Both the position numbers and the translations under genes were made by a program. A stretch of DNA of 36,345 nucleotides, taken from the UHGV virus genome UHGV-0073579; one strand, 5' to 3'. Below the pieces are notes generated by a model, which had not been told where the DNA came from, searched no databases, and saw only the letters and a list, made by a program, of their open reading frames with translations. Below, piece after piece: positions 1 through 36,295 of this stretch (position 1 is its first letter; every line of letters starts with the position of its first letter). The DNA is from a virus.

Positions 1-610
1 GCTGACCCGGTATTCTCTCAAATAAAAAACGAGCATTTTTAAATCGACTGACATCTGGAAGAGTTGATACTTTAAAAGTAAGCCCTCGCCCATCTATCTT
101 TTCACCACCTGTTGCAACAGAAAGTAATTCTGATAGAGCTGATGTATCATCATGAACACCATCACCAATAGCCCCCCAACCTCTTACATCATAACTGTCT
201 CTCCATCTTGCTATCTGAAGTTTTGGGTATTTATTCGCTCCATCTGGGTCTTCTAATTGCTGCCGTAACTGATCAGGATCATACTTCAGCACATTCGGAA
301 AATAGAACTGCTGCACACCATATGCATCATAAACAGCCATAGAATGGCCCTGTACAGTAACGAATTTGGCAATCTGTCCGTTATATACCGGATATCCAGC
401 AGCGTTAATGATGATTGGTTGCGAAACAGGAACGTGAGAACCGTCTTCATTCTCCACATAAACCTGAATCTGGTTTTCAGGATTTACTGGGTCAGTGTCA
501 ATTTTACCGATATAAATCTTTCCATTAGCTACGGCTTTAAAAGAACGAGCCATAGTGAAGAGTTGCGAAGGCATGCTTACCACAACATTGGCATTTATTG
601 AATCTGTCAT
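1..610 (-). CDS. Tailspike protein, N-terminal part (gene continues beyond window start)
   Basis: Minus-strand ATG at 610..608 with GGAG 9 nt upstream; translation [14 protein letters not shown]...[38 protein letters not shown] matches the conserved P22-type tailspike head-binding domain; the downstream part diverges; no stop before position 1. Confidence 0.85.
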
Positions 611-710: not shown

Positions 711-1640
711 TCAGTAGTTATGTACTGAAGGAGGTAATTCTTTATTCTTAAGTCTCATCCATGCGGAAAGATTCGTTGGTCCGTCTGGCTCATTGATATC
801 AACATCTCGTGTGTGGTTTATTAAAACGTCTCTTGCCATTCCGATAACATACGAGAACTCATGGCCATAGTCGTAGCATCTGCCGGAATAGTTCGATTGA
901 ATTTGTTTTAGCGCCGGATACAGTTCGCGGAATAATGCCTGTGAGCGGTTGGCATAATCCCATAACCATACAAGGCTGTTTGCTTCTTTTGCAGAAAGCT
1001 CGTTGGTTTTCTTCTCTTGTTTGCCGATGAACTCGCCTTCAAGCGGAACGCGAGCTGCAAGTGACAGAGCTTCGGTAAACTGCTCATCGCTGATTTCTTT
1101 GTATGAACATCCAAAATGGGATTTCAGTGACGACCACATGGTGATCATCGCCTTAGCCTGTTTTTCCTTTGGCAGAGACTGACCGCGACTCATGACGAGT
1201 TGTTTAATGGCTTCCTGCTGTTCAGTGGTGATTTTACCCGGCAACGCCTTTTTAGCTTTGCGTGGGTTAACTACATGGCCTTTAGTCCAGTATTCGTAGA
1301 GCACATCGTCACACTCTTCCTGATACTGGATTACCTTGTCGCGGATTTCAGGGCGGACTTTGTTAGGGCTAATGGTTTGCAGCCAACCTGCAAGTTTGCG
1401 AAGTGCCAAACAAATAATCTCACGGCGCTGTTCATCACTAGGAAGCTGCATTGTGATTTTCACAATGGAGGTTTTAAACCGCTGCTTCATTTTCGTAAAC
1501 TGTGAAGCCCAATCCATACCCATGCCTTCAACGATAGGTTTCATTGGGGTATACGGTTCGCCGTTGTGATTGACAACATAAAGCTCTGCGCCGTGGAATG
1601 GTACATTGATAGTAGATACTGCTGTTGCTATACTTTTCAT
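711..1640 (-). CDS. ant: Antirepressor Ant
   Basis: 309-aa ORF; N-terminus [41 protein letters not shown] as recalled for P22 Ant; lies downstream of arc and opposite mnt. Confidence 0.8.
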
Positions 1641-1673
1641 GTCGTTAATTCCTATGCGTGGTTTTACGATACC

Positions 1674-1720
1674 GAAGCCCTGACTGTTCCCGCAGTTGGG
1701 GCTTCACTGTTTTGATTTCT
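1674..1720 (+). terminator. Plus-strand hairpin plus T-rich tract between ant and arc (possible terminator of a sar-like antisense RNA)
   Basis: gaagccc...gggcttc stem followed by actgttttgatttctttg on the plus strand; no T-run on the minus strand. Confidence 0.35.
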
Positions 1721-1873
1721 TTGCCGCATCAAGCATCACTTCTGAAAACGTGCGCTTGCCACTGAATACTCTTTCTCTTCTCAATTTTTCGTTCGTGCCA
1801 AATGATTCGCCATGAACAAAATTTGGTCTTAAAATGGTAATCGCAATCTCTTTGACTACTGCATCCAAGCGAA

Positions 1874-2026
1874 TCACACCGTTACCCCCTCTCTCTTCAG
1901 GCTGTCTATCAGGCGCTTGATAACCTCTGAGTTAAACGACCTGCACTCTTCCTTTGCCCTGCTACCGATAGCATCCTTTAACGACTGCGGCATCCTTACC
2001 AAAATCTTACTTATTTCTTTCTCCAT
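1874..2026 (-). CDS. arc: Arc-like ribbon-helix-helix repressor
   Basis: Internal ATG at 2026 with GGAGGG RBS; 50 aa MEKEISKILVRMPQSLKDAIGSRAKEECRSFNSEVIKRLIDSLKREG resembles Arc (..NGRSVNSEI.. motif); the track ORF start at 2062 is probably upstream of the real start. Confidence 0.7.
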   Translation of the reverse strand: MEKEISKILVRMPQSLKDAIGSRAKEECRSFNSEVIKRLIDSLKREGVTV

Positions 2027-2140: not shown

Positions 2141-2389
2141 ATGGCAAAGGGTGTGTCAATTTCTCCAACTACGGTAAGAATCCCTGAATCTTTACGCGAG
2201 GCTCTTGCTGTCAGAGCATCAAAAAATGGTCGCTCTGTTAACTCCGAGATCGTCATGATTTTGCAAGCCGCGATTGATGAAGATAGGTCGCCAAAGTCAG
2301 TTGAGTCATTTGCTCAGCAAGAAGCTGACAAATTCAAAGAGGCGCTGCTTGAGACGCTAAAGACCATGTATGGTAAGGATGAAAAATAA
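2141..2389 (+). CDS. mnt: Mnt-like ribbon-helix-helix repressor
   Basis: 82 aa; KNGRSVNSEIVMILQAAID and C-terminal FKEALLETLKTMYGK resemble P22 Mnt; divergent from arc. Confidence 0.75.
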   Translation: MAKGVSISPTTVRIPESLREALAVRASKNGRSVNSEIVMILQAAIDEDRSPKSVESFAQQEADKFKEALLETLKTMYGKDEK

Positions 2390-2925
2390 TGCTGCACACA
2401 ATTCATTTCTTATGCCCCGTTAACACTGCCACTGTTGGGCAACTTCAGAACCACTGTCTCACCGCATTATCTCAAGGCGCAACTGAATTAAATATCCATA
2501 TATCAAGTCAGGGAGGGGAAACTGCCGCTGGCTTTACTGCGTATAACTTTCTTAAGTCACTCCCTGTTACCGTTAGAACTCACAACATAAGCAATGTTGA
2601 ATCCATAGCTAATATCGTTTTCCTGGCTGGCTCAGAACGTTTCGCAAACCCATTATCAAGATTCCTGTTACATCCTCTATTATGGGGCTTTGCCTCCCCA
2701 GCCGCCGACCATGCCAGATTGAGAGAGTACGGGAAATGCCTCGATAACGATCTTGATCGCTTCGTTGAGACGTTCAATATCGACATCGGAACCCATATTA
2801 GGTGGGCATCCCTGATAGCAGACTCGACCATTTTGGATGCTAACAAGGCTCTTGAGCATGGCATAATTAATTCCATAAAAACTGCAAGGCTGGCATCCAA
2901 TCAGGCAAACTGGTGGGTTGTTTGA
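2389..2925 (+). CDS. ClpP-fold (S14-like) serine protease homolog
   Basis: 178 aa; start overlaps the mnt stop (TAATG); ISSQGGETAAGF / SNVESIANIVFLAG / RFLLHPL segments align to ClpP INSPGG / AASMG / MIHQP, with candidate Ser and His retained. Confidence 0.65.
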   Translation: MLHTIHFLCPVNTATVGQLQNHCLTALSQGATELNIHISSQGGETAAGFTAYNFLKSLPVTVRTHNISNVESIANIVFLAGSERFANPLSRFLLHPLLWGFASPAADHARLREYGKCLDNDLDRFVETFNIDIGTHIRWASLIADSTILDANKALEHGIINSIKTARLASNQANWWVV

Positions 2926-2952
2926 TGGGTAAATCATGATTACTCCTTATAA

Positions 2953-2977
2953 AAAACCCACCTGACGGTGGGTTTTA
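2953..2977. terminator. Bidirectional terminator between convergent operons
   Basis: aaaaacccacc-tgac-ggtgggtttt: GC-rich hairpin flanked by A-run and T-run. Confidence 0.6.
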
Positions 2978-3400
2978 TTAGTGCTTGTATAGCTTGAACT
3001 CCCTGTCGAGCCATAAGACATAAAAAGTGGCTCCTATCTTATAACCAACCATAGGTGCCTTAGAGCAAAATCTGAACGCAATGAAATCCACATCTTGAGT
3101 AACATGCTTAGGAATCGGAGCCTTTATCGCGTTTCTGGCAATTTTTTCCGTCCCAAGCCCGTGTTTATCAGATTTTCGTATCTCATCCCATGACATCTGA
3201 CTTAACCTGAACAGCCTATCTGCAAATGCTGCCTTTTCATGCTTTTGGCAGCAATCTAGGCAATACCCCTTTTGTAGGTATCTAAGAGAAAATACAGGCG
3301 GACTTTTGTCTACATCATGAGATTCGTGATGGATAGAGAGGCCAACAGTAGCAGAGCTCTCTTTATCCCTCTGTTTTATTCTTCCCTTAACTCTAGACAT
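2978..3400 (-). CDS. Hypothetical 140-aa protein, coupled to the Panacea-domain gene (candidate toxin/effector)
   Basis: ORF starts 5 nt after the upstream gene's stop; basic N-terminus, Cys/His cluster (HHESH...CLDCCQKH); no family recognised. Confidence 0.5.
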   Translation of the reverse strand: MSRVKGRIKQRDKESSATVGLSIHHESHDVDKSPPVFSLRYLQKGYCLDCCQKHEKAAFADRLFRLSQMSWDEIRKSDKHGLGTEKIARNAIKAPIPKHVTQDVDFIAFRFCSKAPMVGYKIGATFYVLWLDREFKLYKH

Positions 3401-3405
3401 ACACG

Positions 3406-3849
3406 TCAGTTAATTAACGTTTTGAAAAAACCTTTCATAGAATCAAGTGTGATTTCTTGGCTAACCGCACCCTCAATGTAAGCATCTTTCCATGGCTGCT
3501 CTTCGTGAGTCATATTGCGCAGTTTCCAGGCAGAAAACTGACCATAAACTTTATACACCTCATCCAGCAATTCAATTTCATCTTCACTGAATTTTTTAGC
3601 GTCAAAGTTTTCTGGCGCAGGTAAAGCTCCGTTACCACAGTCCCTATATTTACGATACAATTCAGGAACTACTGGCCCATGCATCCAGGCTTCAATTTTC
3701 TCATTAAATAGCGGCTTACCCAGAAGAACCAGAGAAAACCCTTGGGCATAATACGTCAACTTCTGAATTTTTAGGTTAGAGATAATGTCGCCACTTTCTT
3801 CATCGCAATGCGCCAAGAAGTAGTCGGCGACATCAAAACAAGTGAGCAT
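3406..3849 (-). CDS. Panacea-domain (DUF4065; SocA/GepA-like) protein
   Basis: N-terminal DVADYFL...KIQKLTYYAQGFSLVLLGKPLFNEKIEAWMHGPVVPELY pattern typical of DUF4065; start chosen at the ATG with GGAGG 7 nt upstream. Confidence 0.7.
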   Translation of the reverse strand: MLTCFDVADYFLAHCDEESGDIISNLKIQKLTYYAQGFSLVLLGKPLFNEKIEAWMHGPVVPELYRKYRDCGNGALPAPENFDAKKFSEDEIELLDEVYKVYGQFSAWKLRNMTHEEQPWKDAYIEGAVSQEITLDSMKGFFKTLIN

Positions 3850-4223
3850 AAACATACCTCCATCTTGATAGCCGCAGCTATGTATACAACTGTGTCAAGT
3901 TGCATTTAATACCATAACAAAGCTGTCATCAATCCTTCAGAGGCTAACTTACAACCACTTTCTCGACACGTTTAAATCATTACGTTTCACATTTACTGCA
4001 TTTTCGCCGAAGTTACCTATAAGGTAATGTCACATTTCCTGCAAGTTTCATGCAATGTTGAAAAGTGAGCTATTCACTTTTCTATGACACTAAACACCAA
4101 AAATAGCACTTTTTGCTAAATCATTAGTCCAAGTTGTGGATGGTTTGTCGTTGACACGTTTTCACACACCACTCCACCAATACAGTATCATCTGGTATCC
4201 TGCTCAAAACTAAGGAGGTTGGT

Positions 4224-20505: not shown

Positions 20506-20581
20506 TGGTGCTGGTTAACGGACTTGAACCGCTACCCATTCGCTTACAAGGCGACTGCTCTACCATTGGAGCTAAACCAGC
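20506..20581 (-). tRNA. tRNA-Thr (anticodon UGU)
   Basis: Hand-folded 76-nt cloverleaf: acceptor GCTGGTT/AACCAGC, D-arm GCTC-CAATGGTA-GAGC, anticodon loop CTTGTAA, T-arm AGCGG-TTCAAGT-CCGTT, 3' ACCA; one G-A mismatch in anticodon stem. Confidence 0.6.
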
Positions 20582-20586
20582 ATGTT

Positions 20587-20661
20587 TGGCGGGACAGCGT
20601 GGACTCGAACCACGATAAGAAGGTTAACAGCCTTCCGTAATGACCTTTATATGACTGACCC
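20587..20661 (-). tRNA. tRNA-like element, Asn-type anticodon arm (GUU), aberrant D-arm; possibly a pseudo-tRNA
   Basis: T-arm CGTGG-TTCGAGT-CCACG and anticodon arm GAAGG-CTGTTAA-CCTTC match tRNA-Asn; acceptor has one T-T mismatch; D-stem does not pair. Confidence 0.4.
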
Positions 20662-35028: not shown

Positions 35029-35247
35029 ATGTACTTGACACTTCAGGAGTGGAACGCACGCCAGCGACGCCCAAGAAGCCTTGAAACAGTTCGTCGATGG
35101 GTACGCGAGTGCAGGATATTCCCTCCTCCGGTTAAGGATGGAAGAGAGTATCTGTTCCACGAATCAGCGGTAAAGGTTGACTTAAATCGACCAGTAACAG
35201 GTAGCCTTTTGAAGAGGATCAGAAATGGGAAGAAGGCGAAGTCATGA
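35029..35247 (+). CDS. xis: Excisionase Xis (lambda-type)
   Basis: 72 aa; MYLTLQEWNARQRRPRSLETVRRWVRECRIFPPPVKDGREYLFHESAVKVDL essentially lambda Xis; overlaps int start. Confidence 0.95.
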   Translation: MYLTLQEWNARQRRPRSLETVRRWVRECRIFPPPVKDGREYLFHESAVKVDLNRPVTGSLLKRIRNGKKAKS

Positions 35248-36295
35248 GCGCCGGGATTTACCCCCTAACCTTTATATAAGAAACAATGGATATTACTGCT
35301 ACAGGGACCCAAGGACGGGTAAAGAGTTTGGATTAGGCCGAGACAGGCGAATCGCAATCACTGAAGCTATACAGGCCAACATTGAGTTATTTTCAGGACA
35401 CAAACACAAGCCTCTGACAGCGAGAATCAACAGTGATAATTCCGTTACGTTACATTCATGGCTTGATCGCTACGAAAAAATCCTGGCCAGCAGAGGAATC
35501 AAGCAGAAGACACTCATAAATTACATGAGCAAAATTAAAGCAATAAGGAGGGGTCTGCCTGATGCTCCACTTGAAGACATCACCACAAAAGAAATTGCGG
35601 CAATGCTCAATGGATACATAGACGAGGGCAAGGCGGCATCAGCCAAGTTAATCAGATCAACACTGAGCGATGCATTCCGAGAGGCTATAGCTGAAGGCCA
35701 TATAACAACAAACCCGGTCGCAGCCACTCGCGCTGCAAAATCAGAGGTAAGGAGATCAAGACTTACGGCTGACGAATACCTGAAAATTTATCAAGCAGCA
35801 GAATCATCACCATGTTGGCTTAGACTTGCAATGGAACTGGCTGTTGTTACCGGGCAGCGAGTTGGTGATTTATGCGAAATGAAGTGGTCTGATATCGTAG
35901 ATGGATATCTTTATGTCGAGCAAAGCAAAACAGGCGTAAAAATTGCCATCCCAACAGCATTGCATGTTGATGCTCTCGGAATATCAATGAAGGAAACACT
36001 TGATAAATGCAAAGAGATTCTTGGCGGAGAAACCATAATTGCATCTACTCGTCGCGAACCGCTTTCATCCGGCACAGTATCAAGGTATTTTATGCGCGCA
36101 CGAAAAGCATCAGGTCTTTCCTTCGAAGGGGATCCGCCTACCTTTCACGAGTTGCGCAGTTTGTCTGCAAGACTCTATGAGAAGCAGATAAGCGATAAGT
36201 TTGCTCAACATCTTCTCGGGCATAAGTCGGACACCATGGCATCACAGTATCGTGATGACAGAGGCAGGGAGTGGGACAAAATTGAAATCAAATAA
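35225..36295 (+). CDS. int: Tyrosine integrase Int (lambda-type)
   Basis: 356 aa; MGRRRSHERRDLPPNLYIRNNGYYCYRDPRTGKEFGLGRD... through ...HLLGHKSDTMASQYRDDRGREWDKIEIK essentially lambda Int. Confidence 0.97.
   Translation: MGRRRSHERRDLPPNLYIRNNGYYCYRDPRTGKEFGLGRDRRIAITEAIQANIELFSGHKHKPLTARINSDNSVTLHSWLDRYEKILASRGIKQKTLINYMSKIKAIRRGLPDAPLEDITTKEIAAMLNGYIDEGKAASAKLIRSTLSDAFREAIAEGHITTNPVAATRAAKSEVRRSRLTADEYLKIYQAAESSPCWLRLAMELAVVTGQRVGDLCEMKWSDIVDGYLYVEQSKTGVKIAIPTALHVDALGISMKETLDKCKEILGGETIIASTRREPLSSGTVSRYFMRARKASGLSFEGDPPTFHELRSLSARLYEKQISDKFAQHLLGHKSDTMASQYRDDRGREWDKIEIK

Follow-up and report, generated by a model that had tools for sequence, protein, structure and literature searches.

What is encoded between the arc and ant genes of a P22-like prophage of Escherichia coli, and which strand of that stretch carries the function? 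We address this question for the 36,345 nucleotides of the UHGV virus genome UHGV-0073579 (hereafter the window), for which a preliminary description had noticed a hairpin between the two genes and proposed that it terminates a small antisense RNA resembling sar of phage P22.

In P22, sar pairs around the ribosome-binding site of the ant mRNA, which blocks translation of the antirepressor, and acts together with the repressors Mnt and Arc in favour of lysogeny (PMC12197685, PMC7968456, PMC13397905, PMC2629481, PMC11016777). The P22 RNA measures 68/69 nt (PMC12197685), its transcript has been detected by small-RNA sequencing of P22, and the primary work on it is that of Liao et al. 1987, Wu et al. 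1987 and Schaefer & McClure 1997 (as cited in PMC2629481). sar is thus a regulator known since 1987, with a curated Rfam family and annotated homologues.

Here, we report that positions 1606-1722 of the plus strand very probably constitute the sar gene of a P22-like (Lederbergvirus) E. coli prophage, made up of the promoter Psar, an antisense RNA of about 70 nt and an intrinsic terminator, through which Ant would be limited and lysogeny favoured. We further describe the small genes that alternate at its terminator, one of which, here named ORF57, occupies most of the apparent arc-ant spacer.

Genomic context of the locus

The left end of the window holds a complete P22-type immI ("ant moron") with mnt, a Pant-like promoter, arc and ant. 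The ant gene (711-1640, minus strand) encodes an antirepressor of 309 aa (Pfam P22_AR_N, 4e-45, and P22_AR_C, 5e-30; phrog_245 anti-repressor Ant, 1.6e-97) and arc (1874-2026, minus strand) a 50-aa Arc-family ribbon-helix-helix repressor (Pfam Arc, 5e-12). Divergent from arc lies a gene for an mnt-like ribbon-helix-helix repressor of 82 aa (2141-2389, plus strand; Pfam Arc, 1e-10, and FitA-like_RHH, 2e-8). A promoter scan placed the Pant-like promoter of the arc-ORF57-ant operon at 2063-2091 on the minus strand (TTGACT, 17-nt spacer, TATCTT with TG), a position that agrees with Pant of P22 and epsilon34, and the inverted repeats overlapping it are candidate operators. The segment 1500-2140 is 100% identical in at least 17 chromosomal prophages of human E. 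coli isolates, such as PA45B and UPEC129, and the closest phage records, phiv205-1, CUS-3 and epsilon34, belong to Lederbergvirus.

Judged by ORF sizes and synteny only, the window (1-36345) resembles a nearly whole P22-like prophage in reverse. The 5' end of the tailspike gene (about 1-610, minus strand) is followed by the ant moron and by injection, tail and head genes, and further on by terminase and lysis genes, tRNAs, the replication and immunity C genes and an integrase-sized ORF at 35225-36295 (plus strand). The two tRNA genes, tRNA-Thr (tgt) and tRNA-Asn (gtt), are adjacent at 20506-20661 (minus strand).

Other genes of the ant moron deserve mention on their own account. A 178-aa ClpP-like protein (2389-2925, plus strand; Pfam CLP_protease, 5e-12), which PGAP names "ATP-dependent Clp protease proteolytic subunit", has an ATG that overlaps the mnt stop (ATGA, 2386-2389), an arrangement under which this protein and the lysogenic repressor Mnt would be expressed together; in some relatives the ant moron also includes a small gene of the ClpX-zinc-finger-like type. 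On the minus strand, a SocA/Panacea-domain antitoxin-like gene (3406-3855; Pfam, 2e-24) is followed 6 bp downstream by a 140-aa ORF (2978-3400; phrog_8366, 1e-75) that bears weak similarity to PADLOC NsnC and NCBIfam MAG6450 and is not annotated in the RefSeq record of PA45B. The two genes (2978-3855) have the look of a toxin-antitoxin or defence pair. The ClpP-like gene and the 140-aa ORF converge on a G+C-rich hairpin (AAAAAACCCACCTGACGGTGGGTTTTAT, 2938-2983, both strands) with A-runs and T-runs on its flanks, which resembles a bidirectional terminator. Weak Rfam matches to rteR, STnc420, sroH and Phe_leader, all far under their gathering scores, were rejected; the last three (2938-3043) arise from this hairpin after the ClpP-like gene.

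Identification of the sar gene

When the whole window was compared with Rfam at gathering thresholds, sar and the two tRNAs alone reached threshold. The sar family (RF00262) matched the plus strand at 1642-1708 over model positions 1-68 of 68, with 76.6 bits (E 2.5e-15). Since the gathering score of the family is 43 bits, the element belongs to the sar family by its covariance model, and with such an E-value chance is no longer an issue for the hairpin. The proposal of a sar-like RNA is thereby borne out, as is the comparison with P22 suggested along with it: the element is 81% identical to the annotated P22 sar and shares its layout of promoter, RNA and terminator.

Each of 16 fetched relatives is matched by the same model at the equivalent position. 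The scores are 97.8 bits for P22 and 95.6 bits for epsilon34; CUS-3, phiv205-1, S.Kent 1-2-1, EC.P3, TL-2011b, 611R6, Kapi1, PhiR12_1, Emek, SPN3UB, a Klebsiella aerogenes prophage and one metagenomic contig are likewise above the gathering threshold, and the match in Edwardsiella phage GF-2 is sub-threshold. The records of P22 (BK000583) and epsilon34 annotate sar, Psar and the terminator in the arrangement seen in the window. The chromosome of E. coli PA45B (NZ_CP021288.1) is 100% identical over sar, and its RefSeq record displays the flanking CDSs only, with no sar feature.

A plus-strand promoter had been anticipated near 1590-1640, and the promoter scan found a Psar-like site at 1606-1634 (plus strand), in the first codons of ant. 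It combines TTGATA, a 17-nt spacer and a TG-extended -10 TATACT (10 of 12 consensus positions, with TG), and its position is that of the annotated Psar of P22 and epsilon34; like Psar, it lies in the 5' end of ant and is convergent to Pant. The extended -10 TTGCTATACT and the ant ATG are invariant in the 16 aligned relatives, where the flanking ant coding sequence diverges, and the motif TTGCTATACT recurs in 94 of 106 IMG/VR loci among the matches listed. A second plus-strand site at 1807-1835, within ORF57 (9 of 12 positions, no TG), was set aside as a chance occurrence, regional shuffles giving 1.8 ± 1.4 such sites.

The annotated +1 of P22 falls 7 nt after the -10, and the same spacing applied here gives a predicted sar +1 at G1641, 1 nt upstream of the ant ATG (1640). 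The transcript had been expected to start inside the 5' end of ant: this holds for the promoter hexamers, whereas the predicted +1 is just outside the gene, so that sar would cover the ant leader and ribosome-binding site and not the ant coding sequence. The predicted RNA (1641-1712, plus strand; about 72 nt), with a 5' end placed by homology to P22 and a 3' end in the U-run, folds as a whole into two stem-loops (-28.3 kcal/mol, z = -4.7).

The terminator and the predicted 3' end of the RNA

Stem-loop II, the intrinsic terminator hairpin, spans 1674-1705 on the plus strand, one base more than the 1674-1704 first described. Its 14-bp stem includes three G·U pairs (1681·1698, 1682·1697 and 1687·1692) and closes a 4-nt loop; on the plus strand it is followed by ACTGTTTTGATTTCTTT, within a U-rich tail (ACUGUUUUGAUUUCUUU, 1706-1722) whose bases, read on the minus strand, are the last codons of ORF57 (KKSKQ*). 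Across both strands of 1400-2400, this hairpin is the single terminator-like site. Such a pattern scan is not significant in itself (1 found against 0.7 expected in shuffles), and the significance of the hairpin thus rests on its fold z-score and on the Rfam match.

The two strands differ markedly in folding. The plus-strand hairpin reaches -23.4 kcal/mol (z = -6.2), a value equalled by none of 200 shuffles, against -17.7 kcal/mol (z = -3.4) for the minus-strand one, which contains a 2x2 internal loop and lacks a U-run. Because the three G·U pairs turn into A·C mismatches on the other strand (U1681·G1698 and G1682·U1697 being the pairs whose loss lowers the folding energy there), the hairpin is a terminator on the plus strand only, in keeping with the original observation of a hairpin and T-rich tract restricted to that strand. 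The same wobble pairs, G·U on the plus and A·C on the minus strand, are found in nearly all relatives. The element thus has the two stem-loops of the sar family, the 3' one being a rho-independent terminator on the sar strand alone.

A lack of conservation of the hairpin in related phages had been named as something that would refute the proposal. Stem-loop II hardly changes between phages of Salmonella, E. coli, Klebsiella and Edwardsiella, and for that very reason yields no covariation. The T-run behind it is kept whatever gene lies there, the Lys/Glu-rich final codons of these genes supplying it (IMG/VR census, among the matches listed); as the genes are unrelated, this is independent evidence that termination on the plus strand is under selection. 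By analogy with the 3' end in P22, termination would occur at about 1711-1714, the predicted 3' end lying in the U-run 1710-1713. The terminator does lie between arc and ant, as had been stated, but the predicted end of the RNA falls on the last codons of ORF57 rather than in a spacer.

A probable small gene between arc and the terminator

The distance from the arc stop (1874) to the ant start (1640) is indeed 233 bp; most of it, however, is taken up by ORF57, an open frame of 57 codons (1704-1877, minus strand), which leaves a truly intergenic stretch of 63 bp (1641-1703). ORF57 begins with a GTG that overlaps the arc stop by 4 nt (GTGA), is preceded at 5-6 nt by an SD-like GAGGGGG, and ends in a TGA to which the sar hairpin contributes its final two bases and the adjoining position the third.

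We consider it plausible that ORF57 is coding, and lean towards this reading. No other frame is open throughout the segment, either in E. coli or in the Klebsiella aerogenes prophage, where ORF57 lies between arc and ant with 86% amino-acid identity. It matches phrog_17642 (PHROG 17642; E 1.3e-43), occurs in 21 IMG/VR contigs and carries the label hypothetical both in the phiv205-1 record (QGF19908.1) and in the PGAP annotation of RefSeq (WP_000620145.1). Its SD-like sequence and its 4-nt overlap with the arc stop, which is also the coupling of the unrelated orf73 and orf89 in the same slot, speak against the alternative of non-coding DNA (leader or remnant) at 1704-1877, with ORF57 as an artefact of annotation.

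That alternative, rather unlikely in our estimation, draws on several observations. The start codon is GTG; Pfam, NCBIfam and PADLOC gave no match; and a scan of 185,579 species-representative genomes detected no homologue. Searching 1.84 billion representatives with a profile returned close relatives plus four repeat proteins only (one of them with an FG-GAP-like repeat), and the latter were rejected as spurious since many weak repeated stretches inflate their E-values. The AlphaFold2 model has a mean pLDDT of 54 and no confident fold. Substitutions, at about 13 non-synonymous to 5 synonymous, look neutral-like, a ratio drawn from the only 5 DNA variants known. Frameshifted or duplicated variants also exist (P0001, P0004, P0006 and P0008), and three IMG/VR loci among the matches listed retain a 12-codon remnant (VIRLDAAKKSKQ), apparently produced by a deletion between two "LDA" repeats.

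Stem-loop I and the strand of the structure

In minimum free energy folds, the 5' part of the predicted RNA forms stem-loop I (1641-1670, plus strand), whose loop region holds the anti-Shine-Dalgarno UUCCU (1649-1653). Its stem varies with the class of ant leader: GUCGU...ACGAU in the window and CUS-3, GUUGGU...ACUGAC in P22, GUCAAUA...UGUUGAU in EC.P3 and Kapi1, and GUCGA...UUGAC in SPN3UB. Individual folding of 32 distinct 5' domains produced an outer stem with nucleotide 1 paired in every one of them, built from at least 10 different stem sequences.

RNAalifold applied to the MAFFT alignment recovered hairpin II only and missed stem I, as a one-column offset separates the sequence classes; stem I was recovered by per-sequence folding and a trimmed alignment. 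In that alignment (15 types), which is biased towards structure as each sequence was trimmed by its own fold, standard pairs fill 94% of the cells, compared with 81% in shuffles. Both sides have changed in three of the five pairs, none of 500 shuffles reaches the covariation score, and slid registers collapse.

The element is therefore conserved and covarying as well as strand-specific in its terminator, but stem I covariation is symmetric between the strands and could be explained equally by a structure needed in the complementary ant leader. This opens the possibility that the hairpin acts chiefly through the other strand, as a leader structure of the ant mRNA (an RNase III or stability element, or a fold presenting or masking the ant ribosome-binding site), the plus-strand RNA being incidental. 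Beyond the symmetry of stem I, the minus-strand RNA does fold better than shuffles, and hairpin II is conserved far above what a terminator needs. Nevertheless, since almost every relative has G·U pairs on the plus strand where the minus strand has A·C, the strong hairpin is that of the sar strand; a leader structure gives no role to the invariant plus-strand extended -10 or to the kept plus-strand T-run; and sar of P22 is an experimentally established RNA. We thus regard this explanation as very unlikely. A structure in the ant leader would more probably come on top of sar than replace it.

A variable cassette slot at the terminator

At least eight unrelated small genes lie between arc and sar in different P22-like phages, among them ORF57, a ClpX-zinc-finger-like protein, a membrane protein, orf73 (in Emek and 611R6), orf80 and orf74; the membrane protein, of 89 aa (TM orf89), is that of EC.P3 and S.Kent 1-2-1. 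The overlap between cassette and arc stop is 4 nt in the annotated relatives checked and 8 nt in the Klebsiella prophage.

A census of the slot covered at least 106 usable IMG/VR loci with the exact hairpin, a redundant sample. Among the matches listed, the sar terminator is adjoined by an Arc-like gene in 54 loci, a Cys4 small protein in 21, ORF57 in seven, orf73 in six, orf89 in five, the 12-aa deletion remnant of ORF57 in three, orf80 in two, orf74 in two, and a different 57-aa ORF, possibly of the ribbon-helix-helix type, in one; no ORF was found there in five. One Cys4 type matches Pfam zf-C4_ClpX (4e-11). In nearly all cassettes of the listed matches, the end of the hairpin supplies the TGA, and every cassette finishes with Lys/Glu-rich codons, the source of the sar U-run.

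ORF57 is linked to at least four different classes of sar stem I and ant leader. Near-identity of the window extends over 1519-1706 with CUS-3 and over 1625-2200 with phiv205-1, and the overlap of the two segments is best conserved at the hairpin. As the first similarity stops at 1706 and the second starts at 1625, the hairpin behaves as a recombination joint between modules, a status that probably follows from its conservation.

One could go further and take the 35-nt hairpin for a mere conserved boundary or linker, kept without RNA function where recombination shuffles ant alleles and upstream cassettes, as the segments shared with CUS-3 and phiv205-1, the several leader classes linked to ORF57 and the "boundary sequence" annotated in CUS-3 from 10 bp beyond the ant start, which takes in most of sar, might suggest; we find this hardly credible, since it leaves the promoter, the two-stem architecture, the Rfam match, the T-run and the P22 experiments unexplained, and a recombination joint is compatible with sar.

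Retaining sar as the function of the element, we tentatively propose that its invariant 32-nt terminator hairpin also serves as a fixed docking point for the immI cassette slot, and that ORF57 is a real protein, synthesised alongside the antirepressor within minutes of infection; this combined proposal is possible rather than probable. ORF57 mRNA would then be under the control of Mnt and Arc, and possibly of sar through duplex-directed cleavage.

Proposed action of sar and comparison with known systems

The target under sar can be read from the sequence: the ant Shine-Dalgarno AGGAA (1649-1653, minus strand) lies 8 nt upstream of the ant ATG (1640-1638), and the target takes in both this motif and the 8-nt spacer to the ATG. 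The RNA is thus antisense to the ribosome-binding site and leader of ant, inside an immI that includes Arc and Mnt, and its complementarity to ant is complete because it is encoded on the opposite strand of the target DNA.

From the genetics and biochemistry of P22, we infer that sar is made in the window prophage and represses ant translation. Transcription would begin at about G1641, beside the ant start codon, and run antisense through the ant leader, giving an RNA complementary to the arc-ORF57-ant mRNA from position -1 of ant to the last codons of ORF57. Stem-loop I would present the anti-Shine-Dalgarno, and stem-loop II with its U-run would end the transcript. Pairing would hide the ant ribosome-binding site and block translation of the antirepressor. 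Ant synthesis after infection would be limited in this way, which may favour the establishment and maintenance of lysogeny beside the repressors Mnt and Arc. Transcripts from Pant are expected to read through into ant, since A·C mismatches weaken the hairpin of the mRNA strand and no U-run follows it.

P22 sar (RF00262) is the closest known counterpart, with the same covariance-model family, the same place in immI and the same antisense relation to the ant ribosome-binding site. Both have Psar in the first ant codons with the same TTGCTATACT extended -10, a +1 adjoining the ant ATG and two stem-loops, the terminator hairpins differing by one loop base only; the sizes compare as 68/69 nt in P22 and about 70 nt, as predicted, in the window. 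They differ in stem-loop I (GUUGGU...ACUGAC in P22 against GUCGU...ACGAU), in line with a different ant leader, and in the tail, CUUUACG in P22 against the longer U-run UGUUUUGAUUUCUUU. Furthermore, the 3' end overlaps the arc stop in P22 and the ORF57 stop in the window, and P22 is a Salmonella phage whereas the host of the window is E. coli. CUS-3 (CP000711) is 100% identical over 1596-1706, which includes promoter, stem I and hairpin II, but a Cys4-type small ORF instead of ORF57 abuts its terminator, and the stretch from 10 bp beyond the ant start is annotated solely as a boundary sequence.

More distant systems share the principle. The c4 RNA is processed from its target's own transcript and is not made from a convergent promoter. 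It belongs to a separate RNA family, for which the Rfam scan at gathering thresholds gave no match anywhere in the window. Like P22 sar, c4 of P1/P7 (immI of P1) is a small RNA that blocks translation of the antirepressor gene ant by pairing around its ribosome-binding site (PMC12197685). OOP of lambda and RNA-OUT of IS10 are short cis-encoded antisense RNAs with their own promoter and intrinsic terminator that overlap the gene they regulate at its end or its ribosome-binding site (PMC5415839, PMC3134472). Both are unrelated to sar in sequence; moreover, OOP targets the 3' end of cII and promotes decay, whereas sar covers a ribosome-binding site within a polycistronic mRNA.

Implications

The sar finding carries little weight beyond annotation: sar is unannotated in RefSeq records of E. 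coli prophages and in CUS-3, yet recognisable there with high confidence. Novelty, of a mild kind, is confined to the slot that holds cassettes next to the sar terminator and to ORF57, itself uncharacterised. In the lineage of the window, the arc-ant "spacer" is one of several alternative small-gene cassettes placed exactly at the sar terminator, and the slot offers a modest lead towards early-expressed accessory proteins of phages.
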